DNA from: an uncultured Candidatus Saccharibacteria bacterium
GTDB taxonomy: Bacteria > Patescibacteriota > Minisyncoccia > UBA6257 > 2-01-FULL-56-20
Length of the DNA stretch: 64,000 nt
Assembly (NCBI GenBank): GCA_964361595.1
Contig: CAYIAX010000001.1
Coordinates: 98,128 to 162,127 of the forward strand
Direction of reading: 5' to 3'
The translations under genes were made by a program, and so were the position numbers. The notes beneath the pieces were generated by a model that was not told where the DNA came from, made no database searches, and saw only the letters and a program-made list of their open reading frames with translations. Below, piece after piece: positions 20,001-54,027 of this stretch (the first letter of the stretch is position 1; each line of letters begins with the position of its first letter).

Positions 20001-20149
20001 ACACCTCGCAAAGCTGGCTAAACTATAAAACTAAATGTTTACAAAGTCAAACGAAAAATCTAGAATCTTGCTACCAAATACGAAATCCGGATACGAATAT
20101 ACTAATTCGTATATTTGTAATAAATTTGTATTTCGTAGCCCTGTTAGCT

Positions 20150-21980: not shown

Positions 21981-22544
21981 TTATTTTCTACTTACCCCCC
22001 TGTTTTTCAGAAGTTCCGCAAATTCTTTTTGCAGGTGCTCGAGCTTGGGATTTATAACCACCTGGCAGTACGGCGCGGTGGAATTCCGTTCATAGTAATT
22101 CCGGTGGTATGCTTCGGCCGGATAAAATTCTTTGAGCGGTTCCACCTCGGTTATCACCGGCGCGCCCAGTTTGTTCGAACTATTCAATTTTGCGATCAAA
22201 TCCTCCGCGGCTTTTTTCTGTTCTTCATTTGCATAAAAAATTGCGGAGCGGTACTGCGTGCCCACGCCGTTGCCCTAGCGGTTCTTCGTCGTGGGATTAT
22301 GCGTGCCGAAAAAAACCGTGAGCAAATCATTATAGCTGATTTCTGCGGGATCAAATTCGATTTTTACCGCTTCGGCGTGGCCGGTACTACCTCCGCAAAC
22401 CTGTTCGTAGGTCGGGTTGGGGACAGCACCTCCTGTGTAGCCAGGCATAACGGAAATTATCCCGCGCAATTCTTTAAAAACCGCTTCCGTGCACCAGAAG
22501 CAGCCCCCGCCGAAAACTGCCGTTTGTGTTTTTTGCTTATCCAT
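21981..22544 (-). pseudogene. msrA: Peptide methionine sulfoxide reductase MsrA interrupted by a single in-frame TAG at 22275-22277, at the position of a conserved Gln codon
   Basis: The upstream half carries the GCFWC active site and ends ...HNPTTKNR*. The downstream half, GNGVGTQYRSAIFY..., continues in the same frame. Canonical MsrA reads ...NRQGND.GTQYRS. Confidence 0.75.
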
Positions 22545-22690
22545 GAGTATAAATTATAGCCAGCTAAGGTTTCTCGCGCCGGTTCCAAAGCTTGTAAAAA
22601 ATTATTTTTATTCTGAACTTCGCCATCTGCCATAGGATGCGCAGGAGGAATTTATAAATTTTTAGCCGGTCGCGGAGTTTCATGGCGTCT

Positions 22691-22766
22691 CTACGAAATT
22701 ACGAATTTTTTGTGAATATACGAATTTATATATTTTAGTATATTTGTACCCTTTCGTATTTCGTAG
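22691..22766. repeat. AT-rich inverted-repeat element (CTACGAAATTACGAA ... TTCGTATTTCGTAG). Related copies are at 20077-20138 and 35453-35487.
   Basis: 14-15-bp terminal inverted repeats flank ~45 nt of AT-rich sequence. The TTCGTATTTCGTAG terminus is shared by all three copies. Confidence 0.5.
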
Positions 22767-22769
22767 CGA

Positions 22770-24623
22770 TTACAAGAACTCTTCCCTGTAGCACTCCGCG
22801 CAATACACTATCTCCGGGCGTTCGGGCGGGAAAGTTGTTTCAAATTCATTGGGACAAGCCGCATCGCCGTGAAAATGCTTTGAGGCATTTTCATAGGTCT
22901 TGGCGCCATCCTGCGTGCTCGCTGTTTTGCCTTTGCATAAACAATGGCGTTTCCAGATCTGCAGGCCATTGCGCATCGCCCGCCGTTCGAGATGCCTGCA
23001 GCTAGGACAAAGGCGGGGGAGCGCGATATTCATCTGTTTATAAAACGCTAGTTCTTCCGGTGAAATCCGAAAAGCGGTCGAACAGCCGTGGTTGCACCGC
23101 GGCCGCCTTGGTCCTTCGGCGACGGCGGCTCCGCCCTCCTCCTTCGCCGAAGCTTCAACGGTCGAAGCATGCGCGCACCCGATGATCTCTTTAGTGATCG
23201 ACTCCTGAACATCTCGGATATGGTCCGGCAAATCTTCCGGCAGAAGTGTGGTTTTATAATCCCGCGCCGGGGGTTCCTGCCAGCGCAAGCCCTCGGCTTC
23301 AACTTCTTTTCTTGTCTTCGGATACCAGTCAAAGGCAAAAGATTCGTTATAGGCATAAGCGGAAAGTTCGGCGGGAAAGAATTCGCCGTAGCGGTAAACT
23401 CTGCCCTTGGCGTCGCGGTAGGGCATCTCATTCATCTGGGCTTTGATCTTTTTGACCAGCGCAAAATATTCTTCCTTGCTGTACTGCTTGTTAAGGATGC
23501 AATATTGCTTGTTTCTAAGATTAATGCAACCAAAAGCATTAGAACTATTTTCCGACCAATCGCAATACTGTATATTGTTTGAATTGCCACTGCCCGCGGA
23601 AAAAAGACATTTTTGGGATCGCATGGTGTTAGCTGATTCGTAGAGCAATTCCGACAAATCTCCACCTGCTGTGACATCATAACTGTCTTTGAGGTTGAAC
23701 CCTCCGAAAAATAGGTATTTACAGTTCTCTACTCCATTCAAGGCGGAAAAACATACTTGGCAATTTTTGCTGTCGCGGATAATGTCGCCCGAGACGTTTA
23801 CGCTGTTTAAAACGTGCGCATATCGATGCGGAACGGAAGCGTAGAGGTTTTTGAACTTGTCTTTTGCTTCTTCTAGTCGTTTATAGCTGCCTAAATCCCA
23901 ATATTTCATTGCTTCTACATATTCATCTTTCGCAACTCGTTTGTTCCAAATCCAGTATTTTTGCTTGCGGAGACTCGTGCAACCAAAACAATTTGAGCAT
24001 CCTACGCAATCATAAATGAATGACGAGTCTAAGCATTCGGTTGAAAAGTAGCTAAAACTTACGCGATATAGTCGGCTGGAATGCAGAGCTTCATACGCGT
24101 GATCAGAATTGTCGGTTATGTAGGCATCAAAGGAGTTTTTAGATAAGAGGAGGCCATATGAATTTTCTGAATTTTCGGAGAAAAAACACTTGAAGACGAA
24201 ATAGCAGTTTTTGGAGTGATGCGTCGAATTTGAATAGTCGCAATTAATGTTATTGCTACCAATTAAGGCTGGCCTGGGGACGACTTCCATAAGTTTCCTG
24301 TATTGGGCAAAGAACGGCTGATTAAAATCATAATCTCGTCCGTAGGTCATCGGATCCCACCTATCGGATTGCCAGCAGGGGCGGCAATATACGGTAAACG
24401 GACTTCCGGGAGCCTGGACGGTTATAATGGATTTCTTACAGAGATCGCAAGTGCCTTTATAGAGCGTGCGATCCTCGCGCCAGCTCGACCGGCGCCTGTT
24501 CCGGCAGGCGGGGCACCATGTCGGCGGCGGCACGTCGATTTTCTTATAAAAATCAAAGTCGTCCGGTTCTATAACAAAACTTTGTTTACAGCTCTGGCAA
24601 ATTTTTGTTTCTGCGGTACTCAT
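22770..24623 (-). CDS. Cys-rich (~5% Cys) hypothetical protein with matching N- and C-terminal zinc-ribbon-like modules and an internally duplicated core
   Basis: N-terminus CQSCKQSFVIEPDDFDFYKKIDVPPPTWCPACR and C-terminus CNHGCSTAFRISPEELAFYKQMNIALPRLCPSCR. The middle contains repeated C..C/NS-rich segments. Confidence 0.6.
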   Translation of the reverse strand: MSTAETKICQSCKQSFVIEPDDFDFYKKIDVPPPTWCPACRNRRRSSWREDRTLYKGTCDLCKKSIITVQAPGSPFTVYCRPCWQSDRWDPMTYGRDYDFNQPFFAQYRKLMEVVPRPALIGSNNINCDYSNSTHHSKNCYFVFKCFFSENSENSYGLLLSKNSFDAYITDNSDHAYEALHSSRLYRVSFSYFSTECLDSSFIYDCVGCSNCFGCTSLRKQKYWIWNKRVAKDEYVEAMKYWDLGSYKRLEEAKDKFKNLYASVPHRYAHVLNSVNVSGDIIRDSKNCQVCFSALNGVENCKYLFFGGFNLKDSYDVTAGGDLSELLYESANTMRSQKCLFSAGSGNSNNIQYCDWSENSSNAFGCINLRNKQYCILNKQYSKEEYFALVKKIKAQMNEMPYRDAKGRVYRYGEFFPAELSAYAYNESFAFDWYPKTRKEVEAEGLRWQEPPARDYKTTLLPEDLPDHIRDVQESITKEIIGCAHASTVEASAKEEGGAAVAEGPRRPRCNHGCSTAFRISPEELAFYKQMNIALPRLCPSCRHLERRAMRNGLQIWKRHCLCKGKTASTQDGAKTYENASKHFHGDAACPNEFETTFPPERPEIVYCAECYREEFL

Positions 24624-24910
24624 ATTAAATAAGCCTAGCGCAGTTTATGGGGAAAGAAAAAGCCCCGATTCGGAAGAACAAGGGCAGATGCTACCAGTTT
24701 GGCAAATTGTAGAATTCGGGAGTAGATCAAACAAAAGCCAGTACTTCTATATTTGTATTTGTTATTCGCCCATTCGTACGAATAAGACCGGGTAACTACT
24801 TTCTCATTACCTTTCGACTCAGCTCAAGATTTTTTCCATACGATTTTCCGTATGATTCAACGGATACGGCAATCAGCTGGGAAAAATGTTATAATGTAAG
24901 TTCTTTTGCA

Positions 24911-27673: not shown

Positions 27674-30001
27674 ATGACTGCTTTCCCCTCGGTTCTAGTT
27701 ATTTTCGGCGCCACTGGTGATTTAGCGAGGCGCAAGCTCATCCCTGCGCTTTATCATTTGCACAGGAAAAAGCTTTTACCGCCGCTTTTCCAGATCGTGG
27801 CTTTCTCGCGCCGAGAACTTACAACCGAAGCGTTCCAGGAAATTGCGCGCGAAGCGGTCAAAAAAATTCCCGAAAGCACTCCCGCGGAGACAGAATCATT
27901 TTTGCGGCTCTTCGTTTACATCCAAGGATTTTTCGACCGGAAAACCGGCTATAAGCACTTGGCCGAATTCCTGGGATTTAAGGATAACGAGTGGCAAAAA
28001 TGCTCGAATAAGCTTTTTTATCTCGCGGTCCCTCCGACCTATTACAAAAAAGTTTTTGCCCAGCTTGCGGCCTCGCGGCTCACTGAACCTTGTCCGCCGG
28101 AAGAAGGCTGGACGCGCGTCGCGGTGGAAAAGCCCTTTGGCAAAGATTTGAAGACCGCCGAAGACCTGGACAAGATGCTGGGGCGGCTCTTTAAGGAAGA
28201 CCAGATCTACCGAATCGATCATTATTTAGGCAAAGAGACGATCCAAAACATCCTCGCATTCCGATTTTCCAACTCATTTCTCGATCCTGCTTGGAACAAT
28301 AAATCCGTTCAAGGCATCCAGGTGAGATTTTTGGAAAAATTGGGGCTTGAGGGCCGCGGGGAATTCTATGACGGCGTGGGCGCTTTGCGTGACGTCGGTC
28401 AAAACCACCTTCTGCAGATGCTAGCCTTAATTACCATGCGCAATCCGGGCGTGTTTGATGCGAATGCGGTGCGTCATGCCCGCGCAGAAATATTAAAAGC
28501 TTTGCGTCCGCTCACGAAGCGAAACGTGAACGCGCAGATCTTGAAGGGGCAGTATCAAGGATTCCGGGCAGAAAAGAATATCTCGACGAATTCGCGGACC
28601 GAAACTTATTTCCGGATCAAAACTTTCATTGATCTACCCGAATGGTCTGGCGTGCCGATCCTGCTTGAAGGCGGGAAAGCGCAGGATGTGAATGCCGTGG
28701 ACATCAGCGTTGTTTTCAGGCATAAAATGCCCTGTCTCTGTGTAGGCAAAAAACATTCGCAGAATATTTTGCGTTATGAAGTCCAGCCGCAGGAGCGCAT
28801 TTCGACCTCATTTTGGGTCAAGCAGCCTGGAACCGAAATGCAGATCGAGGAAAAGGATTTCGCTTTTGATTACAAACAAGCTTTTGCCGGGGCGAATATT
28901 TTTGATGCTTATGAGCGTTTACTCATCGATGCGTTTGCGGGCAATCAGACTCTTTTTGTCAGCACGGAAGAAATTATGGCAAGCTGGAAGTTCGTCGATT
29001 CCGTGGAAACCGCTTGGAAGAATTCGGAACTCTTGGCCTACAAAACAGGTTCAGCCGAAGCGCGCAAGGCCGTTTTCCCGGAGGCTGAAATCGGCAAGAC
29101 GATCGGCATGGTCGGTTTGGGTAAAATGGGCAAAAATCTCGCTTTGCATTTGCGTGAGCAGGGCTGGCAGGTCACGGGTTATGATCCGGCGGCTAAATTA
29201 CCGGAGATAAAAATGGCCAAAAATTTGAGCGAACTTACGCGTTCGTTGCCGCAACCCCGCGTGATTTGGCTGATGTTGCCGGCTGGCGCTGGTACGGAAG
29301 CAGGTAAGTTTAAAGAGACTCCGACTGACGCGGTTTTAAAAGAACTCATTCAGTTTTTGGCAAAAGGCGATATCGTGATCGACGGCGGCAATTCTTTTTA
29401 TGAAACTACCGTGCGCCGGGCGGCATTATTCAAAAAACACGGGATTAATTTCTTGGATGTCGGAGTTTCGGGCGGTCCGCAGGGCGCGCGCGCAGGCGCA
29501 TCCTTGATGATCGGAGGCGATGCAAAAGCGTTTACTGCAGTCGAAGAGCTCTTTCGCGATCTGGCCGTCCCGGGCGGATATGTTCACTTAGGGAAGTCAG
29601 GAGCGGGCCATTTTACGAAAATGGTGCATAATGGAATTGAGTACGGAATGATGCAGGCGATTGCCGAAGGCTTCGCCATTATGAAGCAATCGCCCTTTGA
29701 GCTTGATCTGCGCAAAGTGGCGGATATTTATAACCACGGCAGCGTGATCGAATCCCGATTGATCGGCTGGCTCGAAAAAGCCTTACGCGAGCACGGAGAG
29801 AATCTAGAAAAGGTTTCCGGCACCGTGGGGCACTTGGGCGAAGGCGAATGGACCGTGAAAACCGCCAAGAAACTCAAGGTTCCTGTATCGGCTATTGAGA
29901 CCGCTTTCAAGTTCCGTATGCAATCCAAGCGTAACCCGAGTTATATCGGCAAAATTCTTTCGGCCTTGCGGAACCAGTTCGGCGGACACAGCGTTAATTA
30001 A
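27674..30001 (+). CDS. zwf-gnd: Fused glucose-6-phosphate 1-dehydrogenase (Zwf, ~470 aa) and short-form 6-phosphogluconate dehydrogenase (Gnd-like, ~300 aa)
   Basis: N-terminus has VIFGATGDLARRKL, RIDHYLGKE and the Zwf C-terminal YKTGSA(E)... pattern. The C-terminus has IGMVGLGKMGKNLA (Rossmann fold), GGNSFY and VHNGIEYGMMQAIAEGF (6PGDH). A single continuous ORF of 775 aa. Confidence 0.85.
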   Translation: MTAFPSVLVIFGATGDLARRKLIPALYHLHRKKLLPPLFQIVAFSRRELTTEAFQEIAREAVKKIPESTPAETESFLRLFVYIQGFFDRKTGYKHLAEFLGFKDNEWQKCSNKLFYLAVPPTYYKKVFAQLAASRLTEPCPPEEGWTRVAVEKPFGKDLKTAEDLDKMLGRLFKEDQIYRIDHYLGKETIQNILAFRFSNSFLDPAWNNKSVQGIQVRFLEKLGLEGRGEFYDGVGALRDVGQNHLLQMLALITMRNPGVFDANAVRHARAEILKALRPLTKRNVNAQILKGQYQGFRAEKNISTNSRTETYFRIKTFIDLPEWSGVPILLEGGKAQDVNAVDISVVFRHKMPCLCVGKKHSQNILRYEVQPQERISTSFWVKQPGTEMQIEEKDFAFDYKQAFAGANIFDAYERLLIDAFAGNQTLFVSTEEIMASWKFVDSVETAWKNSELLAYKTGSAEARKAVFPEAEIGKTIGMVGLGKMGKNLALHLREQGWQVTGYDPAAKLPEIKMAKNLSELTRSLPQPRVIWLMLPAGAGTEAGKFKETPTDAVLKELIQFLAKGDIVIDGGNSFYETTVRRAALFKKHGINFLDVGVSGGPQGARAGASLMIGGDAKAFTAVEELFRDLAVPGGYVHLGKSGAGHFTKMVHNGIEYGMMQAIAEGFAIMKQSPFELDLRKVADIYNHGSVIESRLIGWLEKALREHGENLEKVSGTVGHLGEGEWTVKTAKKLKVPVSAIETAFKFRMQSKRNPSYIGKILSALRNQFGGHSVN

Positions 30002-35440: not shown

Positions 35441-35722
35441 TGTCGACTATGTAAATTCGTATATTCGTAATAATTCGTATTTCGTAGATTAAAGAAAACC
35501 CGCCCGAGGAAAAGAGGGGCGGGATGATGCGTCCAGACTATCCAAGTCTGGAGCGGGCGCGGAACATCCGCATGCAAATCCGGAAGGGTAAGATGTACTT
35601 ATAGAGTGCGTGGAGCCGCAGGGTGACCACGGCGCCGCGCGGGTAGACCTTTCGCTCGTTTTTCGTAGCAGTCTCCTTCCAGGAGTTTCTATAAATAGCG
35701 TATCACGTTGTAGAATAACGTC

Positions 35723-49185: not shown

Positions 49186-51167
49186 TGCCCACGGCGAAAA
49201 CGAACGAAAGCCGGAAAATAATAGATAAGATTTTTGGAAATCCCGATATAGCTTTCGGACTCAAAGAATTCGAGGGAATAGATTTTAACCAAATTCTCAA
49301 GATCACCGAGAATCAGCCGGGCCGTTTTTACATAAAAGATTTAAAATCCGGCAGCCAGAAATTTGTTTATGATGAAACGAAGAATACCGGCAAGCCGGAA
49401 GAAATTATCCGCCAGCTGTGGCTTTATAAACTAAACACGCATTATAAGTACCCGTTCGAAAGGATCGAAACCGAAAAGAGCATCCGGTTTGGCCGGGAAG
49501 TCCATGCAAAGGCGGCTGATGTTGTTATCTATAAAAAAGACAAAATAACCCCGTATATAATTTTAGAGGTTAAAAATCCCGACGAGAAAAAAAGTATTGA
49601 TCAGCTGAAAACTTACTTAAACTCCGAGGGGTCGGAAATCGGCGTTTGGTCTAACGGCAAGGACAAGGTCATTCTCTATCGCCCCTATCCTAAAGAATTT
49701 GAAGATTCTTTAAGCGATATTCCCCGCGCCGACCAAACCATAGACGACCTTTTTGAAATAAAAAGAAGCTGGGGAGATTTGAATCCGAAATTCGACTTTA
49801 TCGAGATTGTCCGGCACATGGAGGAGCTGGCCCTCGCCGGTTCAGGCGCGAATGTTTTTGAAGAAATATTTAAAATCGTTTACGCCAAACTTTATGACGA
49901 GAAGCTGGCGCGTGAGCGAAGGGAAAATGAAGAAGTGGTTTTCAGAAAATACCGCGATCCGCAGAAAACCTATGATGTTATCAATAACGAGCTTTTCAAA
50001 AACGCCATAAAAGAGTGGCCGGACACTTTCGAGCCGTCGGACAGAATCCGCCTTTCTCCGGATCGATTAAATATCTGCGTGGCCTTTCTTGAGAACATCC
50101 GGCTTTTTGAAATCGGCCAGGGGGAATACGAAATTATTGATAGCGCCTTTGAGTATCTCATAACCGAAGTTTCAAAAGGTAAAAAGGGGCAGTATTTTAC
50201 CCCTCGCCATGTAATTAAGATGTGCGTAAAGATGATGGAACCGAAAGAGGGGGAATATGTGCTCGATCCCGCTTGCGGCTCCGGCGGATTCCTTTTGCAT
50301 TCGATGTATCGCGTTTGGGAGGGCCTTAAGACCGAATCGGCCCAGAAAAATTATGCTTCCAAATATATTTTTGGATTTGATTTCGACGACAATATGCGGA
50401 GAATTTCGCAGGCGTTGATGCTTATAGCCGGTGACGGCAAGCATCACATTTTCAAAAGGGATTCGCTTGACGCGCGCGACTGGCAGGGCGGCGAAAGCGA
50501 AGATGCGCGGGTTGCTCTAAAGCCGCTTCTCGCGAGATTTGATAATCTCTCGGACGATAAGGCCAATCAAAATTCATACCGGCATTTGAATTTTGACATA
50601 ATACTCACCAATCCGCCGTTTGCCGGAGAAAATCCCGAGATCGGGCTTTTACGTCAGTATGAGTTGGCCAGAAAAGAAGGCGGCAAGCTGAAAAATAACG
50701 TCGAGCGGCACATTTTATTCATCGAGCGGGTTCTTGATGCCGTAAAGCCCGGCGGGCGGGTTGCAATCGTCCTGCCGCAAGGCGTTTTGAACAACACGAA
50801 TATGAAATATATCCGGGATTACCTTTTCGAGAAAGCCCGGGTTTTGGCGGTGGTCGGATTGCATGGAAACACATTTAAGCCCCACACGGGAACGAAAACA
50901 AGCGTTTTGTTTCTGCAGAAATGGCTTGCCCGCCGAAGTCTCGACGAAGGCGGGGGCGAAGATCAAAAGCCGCTCAAGGACTACCCGATTTTTATGGCGG
51001 TTTCCAAGAAAGGCGGCAAGGACAATTCGGGCGATTACATTTATAAAAAAGACGCGAACAGAAATTATTTCCATAACGACAAAGGCCGGAAAGTCCTTGA
51101 TCACGACTTGGACGAAATAGCAGATGAATTCAGGAAATTTTCCGGAAAAGAAAAACTCGAATTTTAG
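49185..51167 (+). CDS. hsdM: Type I restriction-modification M subunit (N6-adenine MTase) with an N-terminal HsdR_N-like PD-(D/E)xK domain
   Basis: The N-terminal ~190 aa has an ADVVIYKK...PYIILEVKNPDE nuclease-like core (HSDR_N_2-type). MTase motif I is LDPACGSGGFLL and motif IV is TNPPFAG. The ATG overlaps the lexA stop (TAATG). Confidence 0.85.
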   Translation: MPTAKTNESRKIIDKIFGNPDIAFGLKEFEGIDFNQILKITENQPGRFYIKDLKSGSQKFVYDETKNTGKPEEIIRQLWLYKLNTHYKYPFERIETEKSIRFGREVHAKAADVVIYKKDKITPYIILEVKNPDEKKSIDQLKTYLNSEGSEIGVWSNGKDKVILYRPYPKEFEDSLSDIPRADQTIDDLFEIKRSWGDLNPKFDFIEIVRHMEELALAGSGANVFEEIFKIVYAKLYDEKLARERRENEEVVFRKYRDPQKTYDVINNELFKNAIKEWPDTFEPSDRIRLSPDRLNICVAFLENIRLFEIGQGEYEIIDSAFEYLITEVSKGKKGQYFTPRHVIKMCVKMMEPKEGEYVLDPACGSGGFLLHSMYRVWEGLKTESAQKNYASKYIFGFDFDDNMRRISQALMLIAGDGKHHIFKRDSLDARDWQGGESEDARVALKPLLARFDNLSDDKANQNSYRHLNFDIILTNPPFAGENPEIGLLRQYELARKEGGKLKNNVERHILFIERVLDAVKPGGRVAIVLPQGVLNNTNMKYIRDYLFEKARVLAVVGLHGNTFKPHTGTKTSVLFLQKWLARRSLDEGGGEDQKPLKDYPIFMAVSKKGGKDNSGDYIYKKDANRNYFHNDKGRKVLDHDLDEIADEFRKFSGKEKLEF

Positions 51168-51669
51168 AAATAAGCCTAGAATTGATTTCGAGAAGTTCAA
51201 GAGGGCTAAATTAGACGCTGAAGAATTTTATAAATCTATCGGAGAAATTTATTGCCCTTATTTAAAAGAAAAAATTTCATTTAATGCTAAAGGATTAGAT
51301 CATATAAAATTTGGGGGCTGGAACAAAACAAGACCCCTAAGAGATCAATATATTAGATTGCGACTTCTGAAATTAGCCCCTCAAATAATAAGAGAGTCAC
51401 ATACTTTACAGGAATTTTTCGAAACAACGCGCCTTGAGCGGCGTAGAATAAACGCAAAATGGCAGATGAGCATAGAAAAAACTACTTATTATGGTTTCGT
51501 AGCAATAATCAGAGATTGCAGAATAAAAATAATTATTAAATCAATAGAAGGTGGAAGTAAATTTTTTTGGAGTATTATTCCTTTTTGGAAAAACAGAAGA
51601 TATAAAGTCGATGAAAATACTGTAAATAACAAAAAAATTCTCCATGAAGGAGATTTGGAATTGCAGTAA
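51124..51669 (+). CDS. Hypothetical protein A, embedded between hsdM and hsdS
   Basis: 181 aa, basic. The start overlaps the hsdM 3' end. No recognisable domain. AT-rich. Confidence 0.4.
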   Translation: MNSGNFPEKKNSNFRNKPRIDFEKFKRAKLDAEEFYKSIGEIYCPYLKEKISFNAKGLDHIKFGGWNKTRPLRDQYIRLRLLKLAPQIIRESHTLQEFFETTRLERRRINAKWQMSIEKTTYYGFVAIIRDCRIKIIIKSIEGGSKFFWSIIPFWKNRRYKVDENTVNNKKILHEGDLELQ

Positions 51670-51817
51670 TTCAAGCGGTGTTTGTCTGCGGTTTAAAGAT
51701 TGTAACTGCGGGAGAACCAAAGTCCTCACAAACACCATTGGTAGTATACACCAAAACGGTCAAAAAATCAACTGTGGATAAATTAAAGAAAATATAGTCG
51801 AAAAAACAACCAAAAAT

Positions 51818-52282
51818 ATGAAAATCGAACTTACAAAGGAACAATATAAAAAATTGCTCATTATGAGCGAAATAACAAACAGCATTTTCGGCCTTTTAGG
51901 CGATCATCTGCCAAATACGGATTATAAAAAACGCTCGAACGAAATGGAGCGATTTGGAAAATATCTTTTGGGGAAAGCCGGTGATTTCGGTTGCAAGGAA
52001 TTTACGGAAAAATTCGAAGGGAAGGATGTTTTTAATGAGAAAACACATCATCGGCTTATCATGCCGATATTGGAAGATTACGAAGAGTTTATAATTTTCG
52101 ATGGATTGGCTAATAAATTAGCCTGGCGCGATTTTCGCCGCGATCATTCGGAAGCGGAAATGCGGGAAATGGGAAAAAAGAACGGCGGCTATTTCGGAGT
52201 CGCGCTTTATAATTACGAGAAAAAATACTGGGATGAGTTTAAGAAGCATGATTACGAAAGATTGGAGATAAAAGAAAAATAA
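51818..52282 (+). CDS. Hypothetical protein B, embedded between hsdM and hsdS
   Basis: 154 aa, charged (K/E-rich), no recognisable domain. Confidence 0.45.
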   Translation: MKIELTKEQYKKLLIMSEITNSIFGLLGDHLPNTDYKKRSNEMERFGKYLLGKAGDFGCKEFTEKFEGKDVFNEKTHHRLIMPILEDYEEFIIFDGLANKLAWRDFRRDHSEAEMREMGKKNGGYFGVALYNYEKKYWDEFKKHDYERLEIKEK

Positions 52283-52290
52283 AATTAATT

Positions 52291-52641
52291 ATGTCAAATA
52301 ATATTTTTCCAGAATTGGACGGTTGGGACGATATTAACTCAAGCGGGGGGACTATTGGCACCGGAATAAATAAAGCGATTCATAGATTGGTTATTTCTAT
52401 TGCCAATTTAAGGTCTAGTGTTTCTTCGCAACTTACGTACGTTAAAGGGAAGATAGAAAGCTTGAATCAATCTTTCGAACAACTTAACGAAAATATTCAA
52501 AAAGCAGATCAATCATCTACGAAATTAGCAAGAGCGCTTAACAAATTAACTTTCTGGGCTGTAGTTATTGCGGCTCTTGGGCTCTTAAATTCGTTAGGTC
52601 AGTTTTTATACCAAAATAAATTATGGCCGTTTTCTCAATAA
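52291..52641 (+). CDS. Hypothetical small protein C with a coiled-coil segment and a C-terminal TM helix, embedded between hsdM and hsdS
   Basis: 116 aa. LTFWAVVIAALGLLNSLGQFLY is a TM helix. Its 3' end overlaps the hsdS start. Confidence 0.4.
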   Translation: MSNNIFPELDGWDDINSSGGTIGTGINKAIHRLVISIANLRSSVSSQLTYVKGKIESLNQSFEQLNENIQKADQSSTKLARALNKLTFWAVVIAALGLLNSLGQFLYQNKLWPFSQ

Positions 52642-53987
52642 TTAAAAAAAGCGAATTGGAAGGATCCTTGCGGCTGGACGCGGAATATTATAAGCCGGAG
52701 TACCTGGTTACATTGGAAAAGATAAAAAGCTTCACTTCCGGATTTAAAAAGTTGCCTTATTTCTTATCCAGAGTAGTTGTTACGGGAAGTACGCCAAAGA
52801 AAAGAAGTTGTAGAAACGATGGCACGGATATTAAATTTATTAAGACAGATACCTTGCGAGAAGGACAAATTATTTTTGAAGAAGCAGATTTTTTACCCCT
52901 ACAAGAAAGTCGAAAAAATAGCGAGCCAAAAAACGGAGATATTCTCGTAACTATAATTGGAGCAACTCACGATATAGTTGGGCGGGTTGCAAGGGTATTT
53001 TCCGATGATCCCAAAATAAATATTAACCAAAATATCGCTTTATTAAGGCCGAATCAATTAAGTTTTTCTAGTTATATTTCTGTTTTGCTTCAAACAAAAT
53101 ATGGGCGGGGTCAATTATGGCAACAAAGCAGACAAACGGAGCAAGTCAACTTGAATTGTCGTGAAATAGAAAATATTTTAGTGCCGCTACCTAAAGATAA
53201 TTTTATCGCAGATATAGATAATCTCGTTATAGAATCACATGATTTAATTAGGCAGTCTAAAAATTTATACTCCCAGGCCGAAAATTTGCTTTTGGAAGAA
53301 TTGGGACTGAAAGATTTTCAGGCCGAGAGTAAATTGTATTCAATAGTCAACCTTTCCGAACTGAAATCCGCCAACCGCATGGACGCGGAATATTTCCAAT
53401 CGCATTATGATGGCGTGCTAAATTTAAAAATCGATAAGAAAAGATTATCGGAAATTTCAGATAGAGTAACCGAAAAAATTAAGCTAAATCTAAATTTGGA
53501 ATACAAATATACAGAAATTGGCGACATAGATATTGGGAGCGGAGAAGCTTCGTTTAATTTAAAACAAGGGAAAGATCTGCCAGCTAACGCTAAAATCGGA
53601 ATTTCTGGCGGAGAATTGATAATCTCCAAGGTCAGGCCGACTAGGGGCGCAATCGCAATTGTTCCGGAGGATTGGAAAGATAACCATGTCGTAAGCGGAG
53701 CGTTTTCCGTAATAAAAGCAAGTTCTCCTTTGCGGGAATATATGCAAGTAGTTTTGCGGTCTATAGTTGGTAAGTTGCAAATGGAGAAACCGACAACCGG
53801 AAGTTCGTATCCGACAATTGATGATTCCGACGTGGAAAATCTTTTAATCCCGATTTTGCCTAAAGCGACCCAGCAAAAAATCGCCGACCTGGTTAGAAAA
53901 TCCCACGAAGCGCGGAAAAAATCAAAAGAACTGCTTGAAGAAGCAAAACGGAAAGTTGAGGAAATGATTGAGAATTCCAATAACTAA
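52623..53987 (+). CDS. hsdS: Type I restriction-modification specificity subunit (HsdS) with two target-recognition domains
   Basis: Two repeated conserved regions (LRLDAEYYKPEY and RMDAEYFQSHY) and conserved central and distal helices (LIPLPP...QQKIADLV). Confidence 0.8.
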   Translation: MAVFSIIKKSELEGSLRLDAEYYKPEYLVTLEKIKSFTSGFKKLPYFLSRVVVTGSTPKKRSCRNDGTDIKFIKTDTLREGQIIFEEADFLPLQESRKNSEPKNGDILVTIIGATHDIVGRVARVFSDDPKININQNIALLRPNQLSFSSYISVLLQTKYGRGQLWQQSRQTEQVNLNCREIENILVPLPKDNFIADIDNLVIESHDLIRQSKNLYSQAENLLLEELGLKDFQAESKLYSIVNLSELKSANRMDAEYFQSHYDGVLNLKIDKKRLSEISDRVTEKIKLNLNLEYKYTEIGDIDIGSGEASFNLKQGKDLPANAKIGISGGELIISKVRPTRGAIAIVPEDWKDNHVVSGAFSVIKASSPLREYMQVVLRSIVGKLQMEKPTTGSSYPTIDDSDVENLLIPILPKATQQKIADLVRKSHEARKKSKELLEEAKRKVEEMIENSNN

Positions 53988-54027
53988 ATCCGGTTTTGAC
54001 TCAAAATTTGCGCGCTGCTATTATTAG

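Follow-up and report, generated by a model that had tools for sequence, protein, structure and literature searches.

Predicted zinc-finger cassettes around a duplicated beta-helix core: a cysteine-rich protein family of the Patescibacteria with genomic links to VirD4-like ATPases

Within a 64,000-nucleotide stretch of contig CAYIAX010000001.1 from an uncultured Candidatus Saccharibacteria bacterium (assembly GCA_964361595.1; hereinafter the window), a complete open reading frame (ORF) at 22770-24623 on the minus strand, with an ATG start and a stop codon, codes for a 617-aa cysteine-rich protein. Analysis of this protein and its homologs revealed a family of ~550-620-aa proteins, every one of them annotated as hypothetical, that is essentially confined to the Patescibacteria (the Candidate Phyla Radiation or CPR), with an architecture comprising a finger cassette, a linker, two successive units of a 12-residue-per-turn beta-helix with its cap helix, an alpha/beta region and a further finger cassette. 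Its genes show a genomic link to VirD4-like ATPases, and the proteins are probably cytoplasmic, non-enzymatic multi-zinc proteins. Our tentative reading, which we regard as possible rather than probable, is that they act as scaffolds or adaptors working with orphan VirD4-like coupling ATPases. The core belongs to no known family, the fingers are of known module types, and the architecture and genomic arrangement are undescribed; the literature on the finger families and on this architecture in the CPR yielded no account of the family.

The ORF is exactly as described in the initial annotation, which was made from the nucleotide sequence and its translated ORFs; its 33 Cys (5.3%) include nine CxxC motifs and one CxC motif. 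That annotation further held that the protein is bracketed by two near-identical zinc-ribbon-like modules. The likeness between the two ends is far above chance: residues 1-110 and 496-617 align with each other in BLASTP (E 3e-12), and profiles of the two cassettes, cut from a 149-sequence family alignment, match in hhalign at 99.2% (E 1.3e-19, 77 columns, 31% identity). However, at ~25-31% identity the ends are homologous rather than near-identical, and each holds not a single zinc module but two consecutive fingers, namely one of the zf_Tbcl type (PF13451) followed by one of the CxxC-x17-CxxC type (PF23477/TIGR04272). The first fingers of the two ends are related to each other (hhalign 98.9%, E 3.2e-17), as are the second fingers (94.5%, E 7.7e-8), and by the same method the two types of finger are mutually unrelated.

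The PF13451 family, described as a “probable treble clef domain”, is made up largely of small domains that stand alone or lie at a terminus. Both terminal first fingers of the 617-aa protein share with it the pattern CxxC...F.I...E..FY.K...P.P..CPxCR; here, in contrast, two copies bracket a 600-aa protein, and some copies in paralogues are devoid of Cys. Against the gathering cut-off of 24 bits, zf_Tbcl scores 18.3 bits with the full-length protein, 25.3 with residues 1-57 scanned alone and 15.6 with residues 505-561. The second fingers (residues 51-99 and 554-617) show weak matches to zf_Tbcl_2 (PF23477) of 16.1 and 17.0 bits (cut-off 27), and of 14.6 and 14.4 bits (cut-off 36) to its NCBIfam counterpart TIGR04272, the “CxxC-x17-CxxC domain”. 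The N-terminal second finger nevertheless has the exact spacing of that domain (C59-x2-C62-x17-C80-x2-C83, ending in VYCxxC), whereas the C-terminal one, whose first knuckle is split by a 26-residue Cys/His insertion, fits it only if the insertion is discounted. We treat both as divergent relatives, not members, of TIGR04272/PF23477. Relatives of the query are recognized more readily: zf_Tbcl is detected in 16 of 29 orthologues (best E 5e-7) and 21 of 53 paralogues, zf_Tbcl_2 in 13 and 16 of them, respectively, and other family members reach E 7e-7 for the CxxC-x17-CxxC finger; no further family recurs among the 53 paralogues. Thus, the earlier suggestion that the architecture matches no nameable family stands for the whole protein and its core (in Pfam, NCBIfam, PADLOC and PDB sequence searches), but fails for the terminal modules. 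The zf_Tbcl domain itself has no established function.

Conservation of the terminal Cys pairs, which the initial annotation had proposed as a check, was examined in 166 full-length family members and proved to be all-or-none, the pattern expected of ligands of one metal site. C9, C12, C37 and C40 are all present in 162 paralogues and all absent in 3; C62, C80 and C83 are together present in 87 and together absent in 74, with 5 being mixed. The C-terminal zf_Tbcl site, C510(x3)C514...C539xxC542, is found in at least 107, and the quartet C561, C590, C608 and C611 of the last finger is universal across the family. The four fingers hence supply four predicted Cys4 sites. The 26-residue insertion is a feature of the query's subfamily, in which C563, H583 and H585 co-occur; paralogues without it read C-x4-C...C-x2-C. 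Within the core, C206, C209, C212 and C215 form a CxxCxxCxxC turn, each being kept in 83-95% of the paralogues; as the structural model places strand or bridge residues at every third position across 188-215, the four Cys of this turn could face the lumen of the helix as a candidate fifth metal site. Together with the Cys/His insertion, this turn would bring the total to as many as six candidate sites.

In some paralogues (locus and positions L039:674-2323, L068:986-2788 and L077:4572-6233) the C-terminal first finger lacks any Cys but retains FxIxxxExxFYKK...LP, suggesting that this motif itself, beyond zinc binding, is under selection.

The core between the cassettes is duplicated, as had been proposed: residues 137-240 and 285-391 are 31% identical (BLASTP E 2e-11), and their profiles match in hhalign at 99.9% (E 3.3e-36, 117 columns). 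The “NS-rich turns” of the initial annotation turned out to be the Ser and Asn positions of a 12-residue register in which position 1 is Ser, position 3 Asn and position 4 Cys, Ser or Ala, and each half closes with FGCxxLRNKxYCIxNxxYxKEEY running into a helix. An AlphaFold2 model built with 29 orthologues had a mean predicted local distance difference test (pLDDT) score of 71, and one built with 149 orthologues and paralogues reached a pLDDT of 88.0 and a predicted template modeling (pTM) score of 0.89, with values below 50 only at residues 498-508. It places strands every 12 residues in both halves (e.g., 349-352, 361-364 and 373-376). Foldseek searches of the PDB with this model recovered nothing at E <=0.001; the family profile matched none of the PDB sequences, and no Pfam or NCBIfam family covers the beta-helix core. 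More generally, whether the query was the complete protein, one of its segments or a family profile, only the weak finger matches came back from Pfam, NCBIfam, PADLOC and PDB. The linker (92-124) and the alpha/beta region (400-486) are likewise strongly conserved and confidently modeled, with no detectable relatives (for the latter, in a PDB sequence search).

A beta-helical turn of 12 residues is also seen in the Tenebrio molitor antifreeze protein (PDB 1EZG). PF02420, the insect antifreeze repeat, has a weak precomputed match in one paralogue; it has none in the query or the 53 paralogues at E up to 0.1, and the Thr-Cys-Thr ladder was sought in the 12-residue register and is absent. The antifreeze protein is small and secreted, carries one disulfide per turn and binds ice through a Thr-x-Thr face, whereas the 617-aa protein is predicted to be cytoplasmic, with Cys gathered in one turn and with capped helices set within a multidomain protein; it is a fold analogue and not a member of that family. 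Other narrow beta-solenoids, such as curli CsgA (PDB 8C50), 3ULT and the bactofilin 6RIA, share 3-7% sequence identity with it; CsgA and its like polymerize or bind ice outside the cell, and the cap helices on both beta-helices would argue against such end-to-end stacking here. The left-handed beta-helix of the hexapeptide acyltransferases was also considered and rejected, as neither 18-residue turns nor a Hexapep match in Pfam was found.

We infer that the protein is non-enzymatic because family-wide invariance is nearly confined to Cys, Gly, Pro, Asn and aromatic residues, along with the Arg following the CPxC knuckles; searches of Pfam, NCBIfam and PADLOC recovered no catalytic family. A cytoplasmic location is predicted from the lack of any signal peptide or transmembrane segment in the family: the maximal hydropathy over 19 residues is 0.82 in the query, in which the finger begins at residue 9, and exceeds 1.6 in just 1 of 191 members.

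Conservation of the ORF in related genomes, the second check that had been proposed, is extensive and indicates a real gene under strong constraint. A first search for homologs returned more than 6,300 significant matches, and each of the best 120 spans the full length at 48-63% identity and carries a hypothetical annotation; their sources are Wolfebacteria, Liptonbacteria, Nomurabacteria and Paceibacterota. When 1.84 billion cluster representatives were searched with a profile, 4,647 clusters (at 50% identity) matched with E <=1e-3 and 1,908 with E <=1e-30, the best 150 being mostly of 540-620 aa with a few shorter fragments. When each GTDB species is represented by a single genome, relatives are encoded at no fewer than 558 loci, and Patescibacteria account for all of the best 80. 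The named matches are all from Patescibacteria but one, with one cluster member labeled as Oligoflexia. The 617-aa gene is also better conserved than that of the neighboring ATP-binding cassette (ABC) exporter. Among 2.9 million viral contigs, the family is absent save for one marginal partial match, and a phage or mobile origin was accordingly rejected. An anti-phage defense system was also rejected, as PADLOC yielded no match for the query or three paralogues and only weak HerA and mad8 matches for neighboring ATPases.

Examination of 191 family genes in 88 loci showed that they are frequently present in multiple copies. Per stretch of ~16 kb, 34 loci have a single copy, 29 have two, 13 three, 7 four, 2 five, 1 six and 2 eight, with one locus packing 8 copies into 15 kb; on a contig of the single-cell genome AH-259-L05, arrays of 7 and 8 place 15 copies in the first 29 kb. 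The array genes are co-directional, often with overlapping stop and start codons. The median identity within an array is 33-43%, and most copies are closer to a relative in another genome (39-87%), which indicates that the paralogues are ancient and maintained rather than products of recent expansion. The window copy is a solo representative of one such orthologue group.

The genomic context of single orthologues appeared inconsistent at first look. We clustered all ORFs flanking family genes across the 88 loci, and the dominant partner was found to be a P-loop ATPase of the VirD4/TraG/TrwB type, with matches to TrwB_AAD_bind, T4SS-DNA_transf, DUF87 and TraG-D_C. Of the 37 such genes, spread over 24 loci, 20 directly adjoin a family gene, invariably in the same orientation, and another 7 are one gene off. 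As direct neighbors they rank first (17 loci), followed by ABC exporters (6), CutA1 (5) and GrpE (4). Typical gene orders, with T4CP for the type IV coupling protein-like ATPase and FAM for a family gene, are T4CP-FAM-FAM-T4CP and T4CP(membrane)-small membrane protein-T4CP(soluble)-FAM array. The ATPases fall into three subtypes: a membrane-anchored one, a soluble one of ~485-512 aa and a soluble one of ~610-730 aa with a long tail and a bona fide TIGR04272 finger (59.9-66.4 bits against the cut-off of 36). A search with this finger alone recovered 8 small archaeal or metagenomic CxxC-x17-CxxC proteins offering no functional context. A published survey counted 5,713 VirD4 homologues in 2,918 Patescibacteria genomes, only 148 of them near virB4, and noted that their recruitment to another function by exaptation “cannot be ruled out” (PMC12102498); the 617-aa family is not mentioned in it.

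A recurrent module lies upstream of the arrays in five loci (L020, L052, L053, L056 and L078), and comprises a protein with Sigma70_r4 and HARE-HTH domains (~342 aa), a membrane-anchored VirD4-like protein (~440-475 aa), a small membrane protein (~170-195 aa) and a soluble VirD4-like ATPase (~485 aa). Further, a CutA1-like gene often follows a VirD4-like gene. Downstream of a ribosomal-protein operon, Nomurabacteria-type genomes intersperse family genes and ATPase genes with grpE, dnaK and dnaJ; six such loci (L004, L006, L013, L036, L044 and L071) have the order GrpE - FAM(n) - ABC - PaaX_M - DnaK - T4CP - FAM - T4CP - DnaJ, with the PaaX_M-domain gene on the opposite strand. Adjacency to an ABC exporter, as in the window, recurs in 7 loci; we set the exporter aside as a functional partner because identity among the exporters is just ~43% and limited to the ATPase domain, which marks them as distant relatives.

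Taken together, we tentatively favor a scaffold or adaptor role. Here, the two capped beta-helices would form a rigid body presenting both finger cassettes as docking heads, and the protein would be an adaptor or client of the orphan VirD4/TraG-like ATPases (T4CP-like members of the FtsK/HerA superfamily). The finger type common to the protein and some of these ATPases may bind a shared partner, either nucleic acid or each other, and the ancient paralogues in co-directional arrays could supply distinct specificities or subunits. Several observations weigh against this proposal: 64 of the 88 loci lack a VirD4-like ATPase within ~8 kb; the 64-kb window has neither a VirD4-like gene nor a paralogue of its single family copy; the query's fingers score below the curated cut-offs, except for the N-terminal zf_Tbcl scanned alone; and the Nomurabacteria-type loci, with the family inside the grpE-dnaK-dnaJ region, point to a different partner set. 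Moreover, the loci are phylogenetically related, and the synteny may thus partly reflect shared ancestry.

A possible, albeit somewhat doubtful, alternative is a nucleic-acid-binding housekeeping factor independent of the ATPases, in which the two treble-clef cassettes, through their basic CPxCRxxRR helices, would bind two RNA or DNA sites at a distance fixed by the rigid double beta-helix, for instance in ribosome or RNA metabolism or in the handling of imported DNA. The finger segments are indeed the basic parts of the protein (isoelectric points of 8.5 and 9.3), and R41, R543 and R547, located behind the second CxxC in the zf_Tbcl fingers, are conserved throughout the family; yet the whole protein is near neutral (7.9), with an acidic second beta-helix and alpha/beta region, and no nucleic-acid-binding family was matched. 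The CxxC-x17-CxxC domain also occurs on DEAD-box helicases. Orthologues are conserved at the level of housekeeping genes, several loci place the family downstream of the S13-S11-S4-rpoA-L17-L13-S9 operon and six have ComEC nearby; however, up to 15 paralogues per genome would be unusual for a housekeeping RNA factor, and the Cys of the C-terminal zf_Tbcl are gone in some paralogues.

It is less likely that the family serves proteostasis as a zinc-thiolate redox sensor, holdase or metal buffer, wherein Zn-Cys4 centers would, as in DnaJ or Hsp33, free zinc upon oxidation and bind unfolded clients along with DnaK, DnaJ and GrpE. This would accommodate the 33 Cys with up to six candidate metal sites, as well as the neighborhoods: grpE is found in 6 loci, dnaK in 11 and dnaJ in 7, interleaved with family genes in the Nomurabacteria-type arrangement; 5 loci have CutA1 as a direct neighbor; in one (L001), genes for superoxide dismutase and peptide deformylase are nearby; and the window gene itself is upstream of msrA, coding for methionine sulfoxide reductase. 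However, the link to chaperones is limited to the synteny block of one lineage, the msrA of the window has an in-frame TAG, and there is no likeness to the CxxCxGxG motif of DnaJ or to Hsp33. A buffer role would also fail to account for paralogues that are ancient and distinct, or for beta-helices that are rigid and capped.

We consider it more improbable still that the proteins are zinc-finger-tagged cargo of the orphan VirD4-like ATPases, recognized via their terminal cassettes and exported to the host cell by the type IV apparatus of Patescibacteria or another route, or, in a variant, that ATPase and beta-helix protein form a machine for importing or handling host DNA. Certain type IV secretion substrates are recognized by VirD4 through a conserved terminal recognition domain, e.g., the XVIPCD effectors of Xanthomonas. 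The 617-aa family is similarly paralogous, has conserved terminal modules, lacks a Sec signal and is encoded beside coupling-protein homologues. In contrast to those effectors, to which it has no sequence relation, its orthologues are conserved at housekeeping level and are not diversifying. Further, the ATPases adjoining it are mostly soluble and usually not near virB4 (PMC12102498). If this were the true function, the family would be the first candidate effector family of the episymbiotic lifestyle of the CPR.

An enzyme, be it an iron-sulfur or radical-SAM/SPASM-type peptide maturase or another redox enzyme with the CxxCxxCxxC turn as its cluster site, is very unlikely. The abundance of Cys and the conserved, superficially ferredoxin-like motif at 206-215 might evoke such a function. 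However, neither Pfam nor NCBIfam gave a radical-SAM, SPASM or ferredoxin match for the query and 53 paralogues, the sequence is devoid of a CxxxCxxC motif, no conserved precursor-peptide gene is found beside the arrays and the invariant residues look structural. Cys-richness is hence the sole trait held in common with radical-SAM/SPASM maturases, with no matching domain or fold; the initial annotation had named a confident match to such a maturase or another characterized family as what would overturn it, and none emerged. Finally, a chance ORF or annotation artefact, for which the absence of functional annotation is the sole argument, is refuted by the 4,647 clusters matching the family profile, the full-length conservation and the confident structure prediction, and has practically no probability left.

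The features of the protein and of the intergenic element adjoining its gene are collected in Table 1.

Table 1. Segments of the 617-aa protein and the adjacent intergenic element, with nucleotide positions counted from the first letter of the window
Feature	Residues	Window positions	Strand	Remarks
N-terminal zf_Tbcl treble-clef finger	6-46	24486..24608	-	C9, C12, C37, C40; FxIxxxDxxFYxK motif; basic CPxCRxRRR helix
Second N-terminal finger	55-91	24351..24461	-	Exact CxxC-x17-CxxC spacing; C59, C62, C80, C83
Conserved linker with helix	92-124	24252..24350	-	Motif from residue 86: SDxWDPxxYGxDYDFxxPFFxQ...VP
Beta-helix 1	125-245	23889..24251	-	About nine 12-residue turns; S-x-N-[CSA] register; FGCxxLRxxxYxIxN cap and KEEY helix
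CxxCxxCxxC turn, candidate intraluminal Cys4 metal site	206-215	23979..24008	-	C206, C209, C212, C215
Beta-helix 2 and cap helix, internal duplicate of beta-helix 1	269-399	23427..23819	-	hhalign; model strands
Conserved alpha/beta region	400-486	23166..23426	-	MPYxDxxGRxYxYGEFFPxExSxxAYNE...W...LPDxIxDV...C483xH; pLDDT 85-98
Ala/Glu/Gly-rich insertion, probably disordered	487-509	23097..23165	-	Variable among orthologues, mostly alignment gaps; low model confidence
C-terminal zf_Tbcl finger	510-555	22959..23096	-	C510, C514, C539, C542; homologous to N-terminal zf_Tbcl
C-terminal CxxC-x17-CxxC-type finger	556-617	22773..22958	-	C561, C590, C608, C611; split by 26-residue insertion with C563, H583, H585
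AT-rich palindromic intergenic element of TACGAA(A/T)T units		22682..22768		Directly 3' of the 617-aa ORF, upstream of msrA

The AT-rich inverted repeat that had been noted at the 3' end of the ORF is indeed present and folds as a long imperfect hairpin (free energy -29.7 kcal/mol, z -2.6). Its consensus is CTACGAAATACGAAAT..TTACGAATATAC.AATTTGTATATTCGTAATAATTCGTATTTCGTAG, and with a further full copy at 20070-20140 and a half copy at 35450-35490 the window holds two full elements and one half; it is hence a dispersed repeat not specific to the 617-aa gene. This intergenic repeat is probably terminator-like or regulatory and unrelated to the function of the protein; it could be a terminator, an operator or a repeat akin to the repetitive extragenic palindromic (REP) elements. 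A perfect 10-nt palindrome, TTCGTACGAA, occurs at 24773-24782, where the 617-aa gene and that of the ABC exporter diverge; it is not enriched as a motif, with only the longer TACGAA-unit element recurring.

Other than the divergent ABC exporter, the neighbors of the gene in the window are msrA and genes for a MazG-like protein and a dCache sensor. The msrA gene (21981-22544, minus strand) has a single in-frame TAG at 22275-22277, with the PMSR domain being matched by both halves, at a position where MsrA usually has Gln, in an NRQGND motif; possible explanations are a pseudogene, a sequencing error and a read-through codon. Elsewhere in the window, a single plus-strand ORF of 775 aa (27674-30001) codes for a fusion of glucose-6-phosphate dehydrogenase (G6PD_N, G6PD_C) and 6-phosphogluconate dehydrogenase (NAD_binding_2, 6PGD), and the GC content falls to 0.38-0.43 at 50001-54000 as against ~0.50 in the remainder.

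The genomes of the CPR are tiny, and most of their lineage-specific genes are without known function; yet some of them spend up to ~26 kb on 15 paralogues of this family, which are kept distinct and conserved as strongly as housekeeping genes. Their predicted structure is unusual, with two capped 12-residue beta-helices, one of which has a turn of four putatively inward-facing Cys, set between pairs of treble-clef fingers. Finally, the same-strand adjacency of the family to VirD4-like ATPases offers a concrete, testable partner for these ATPases.

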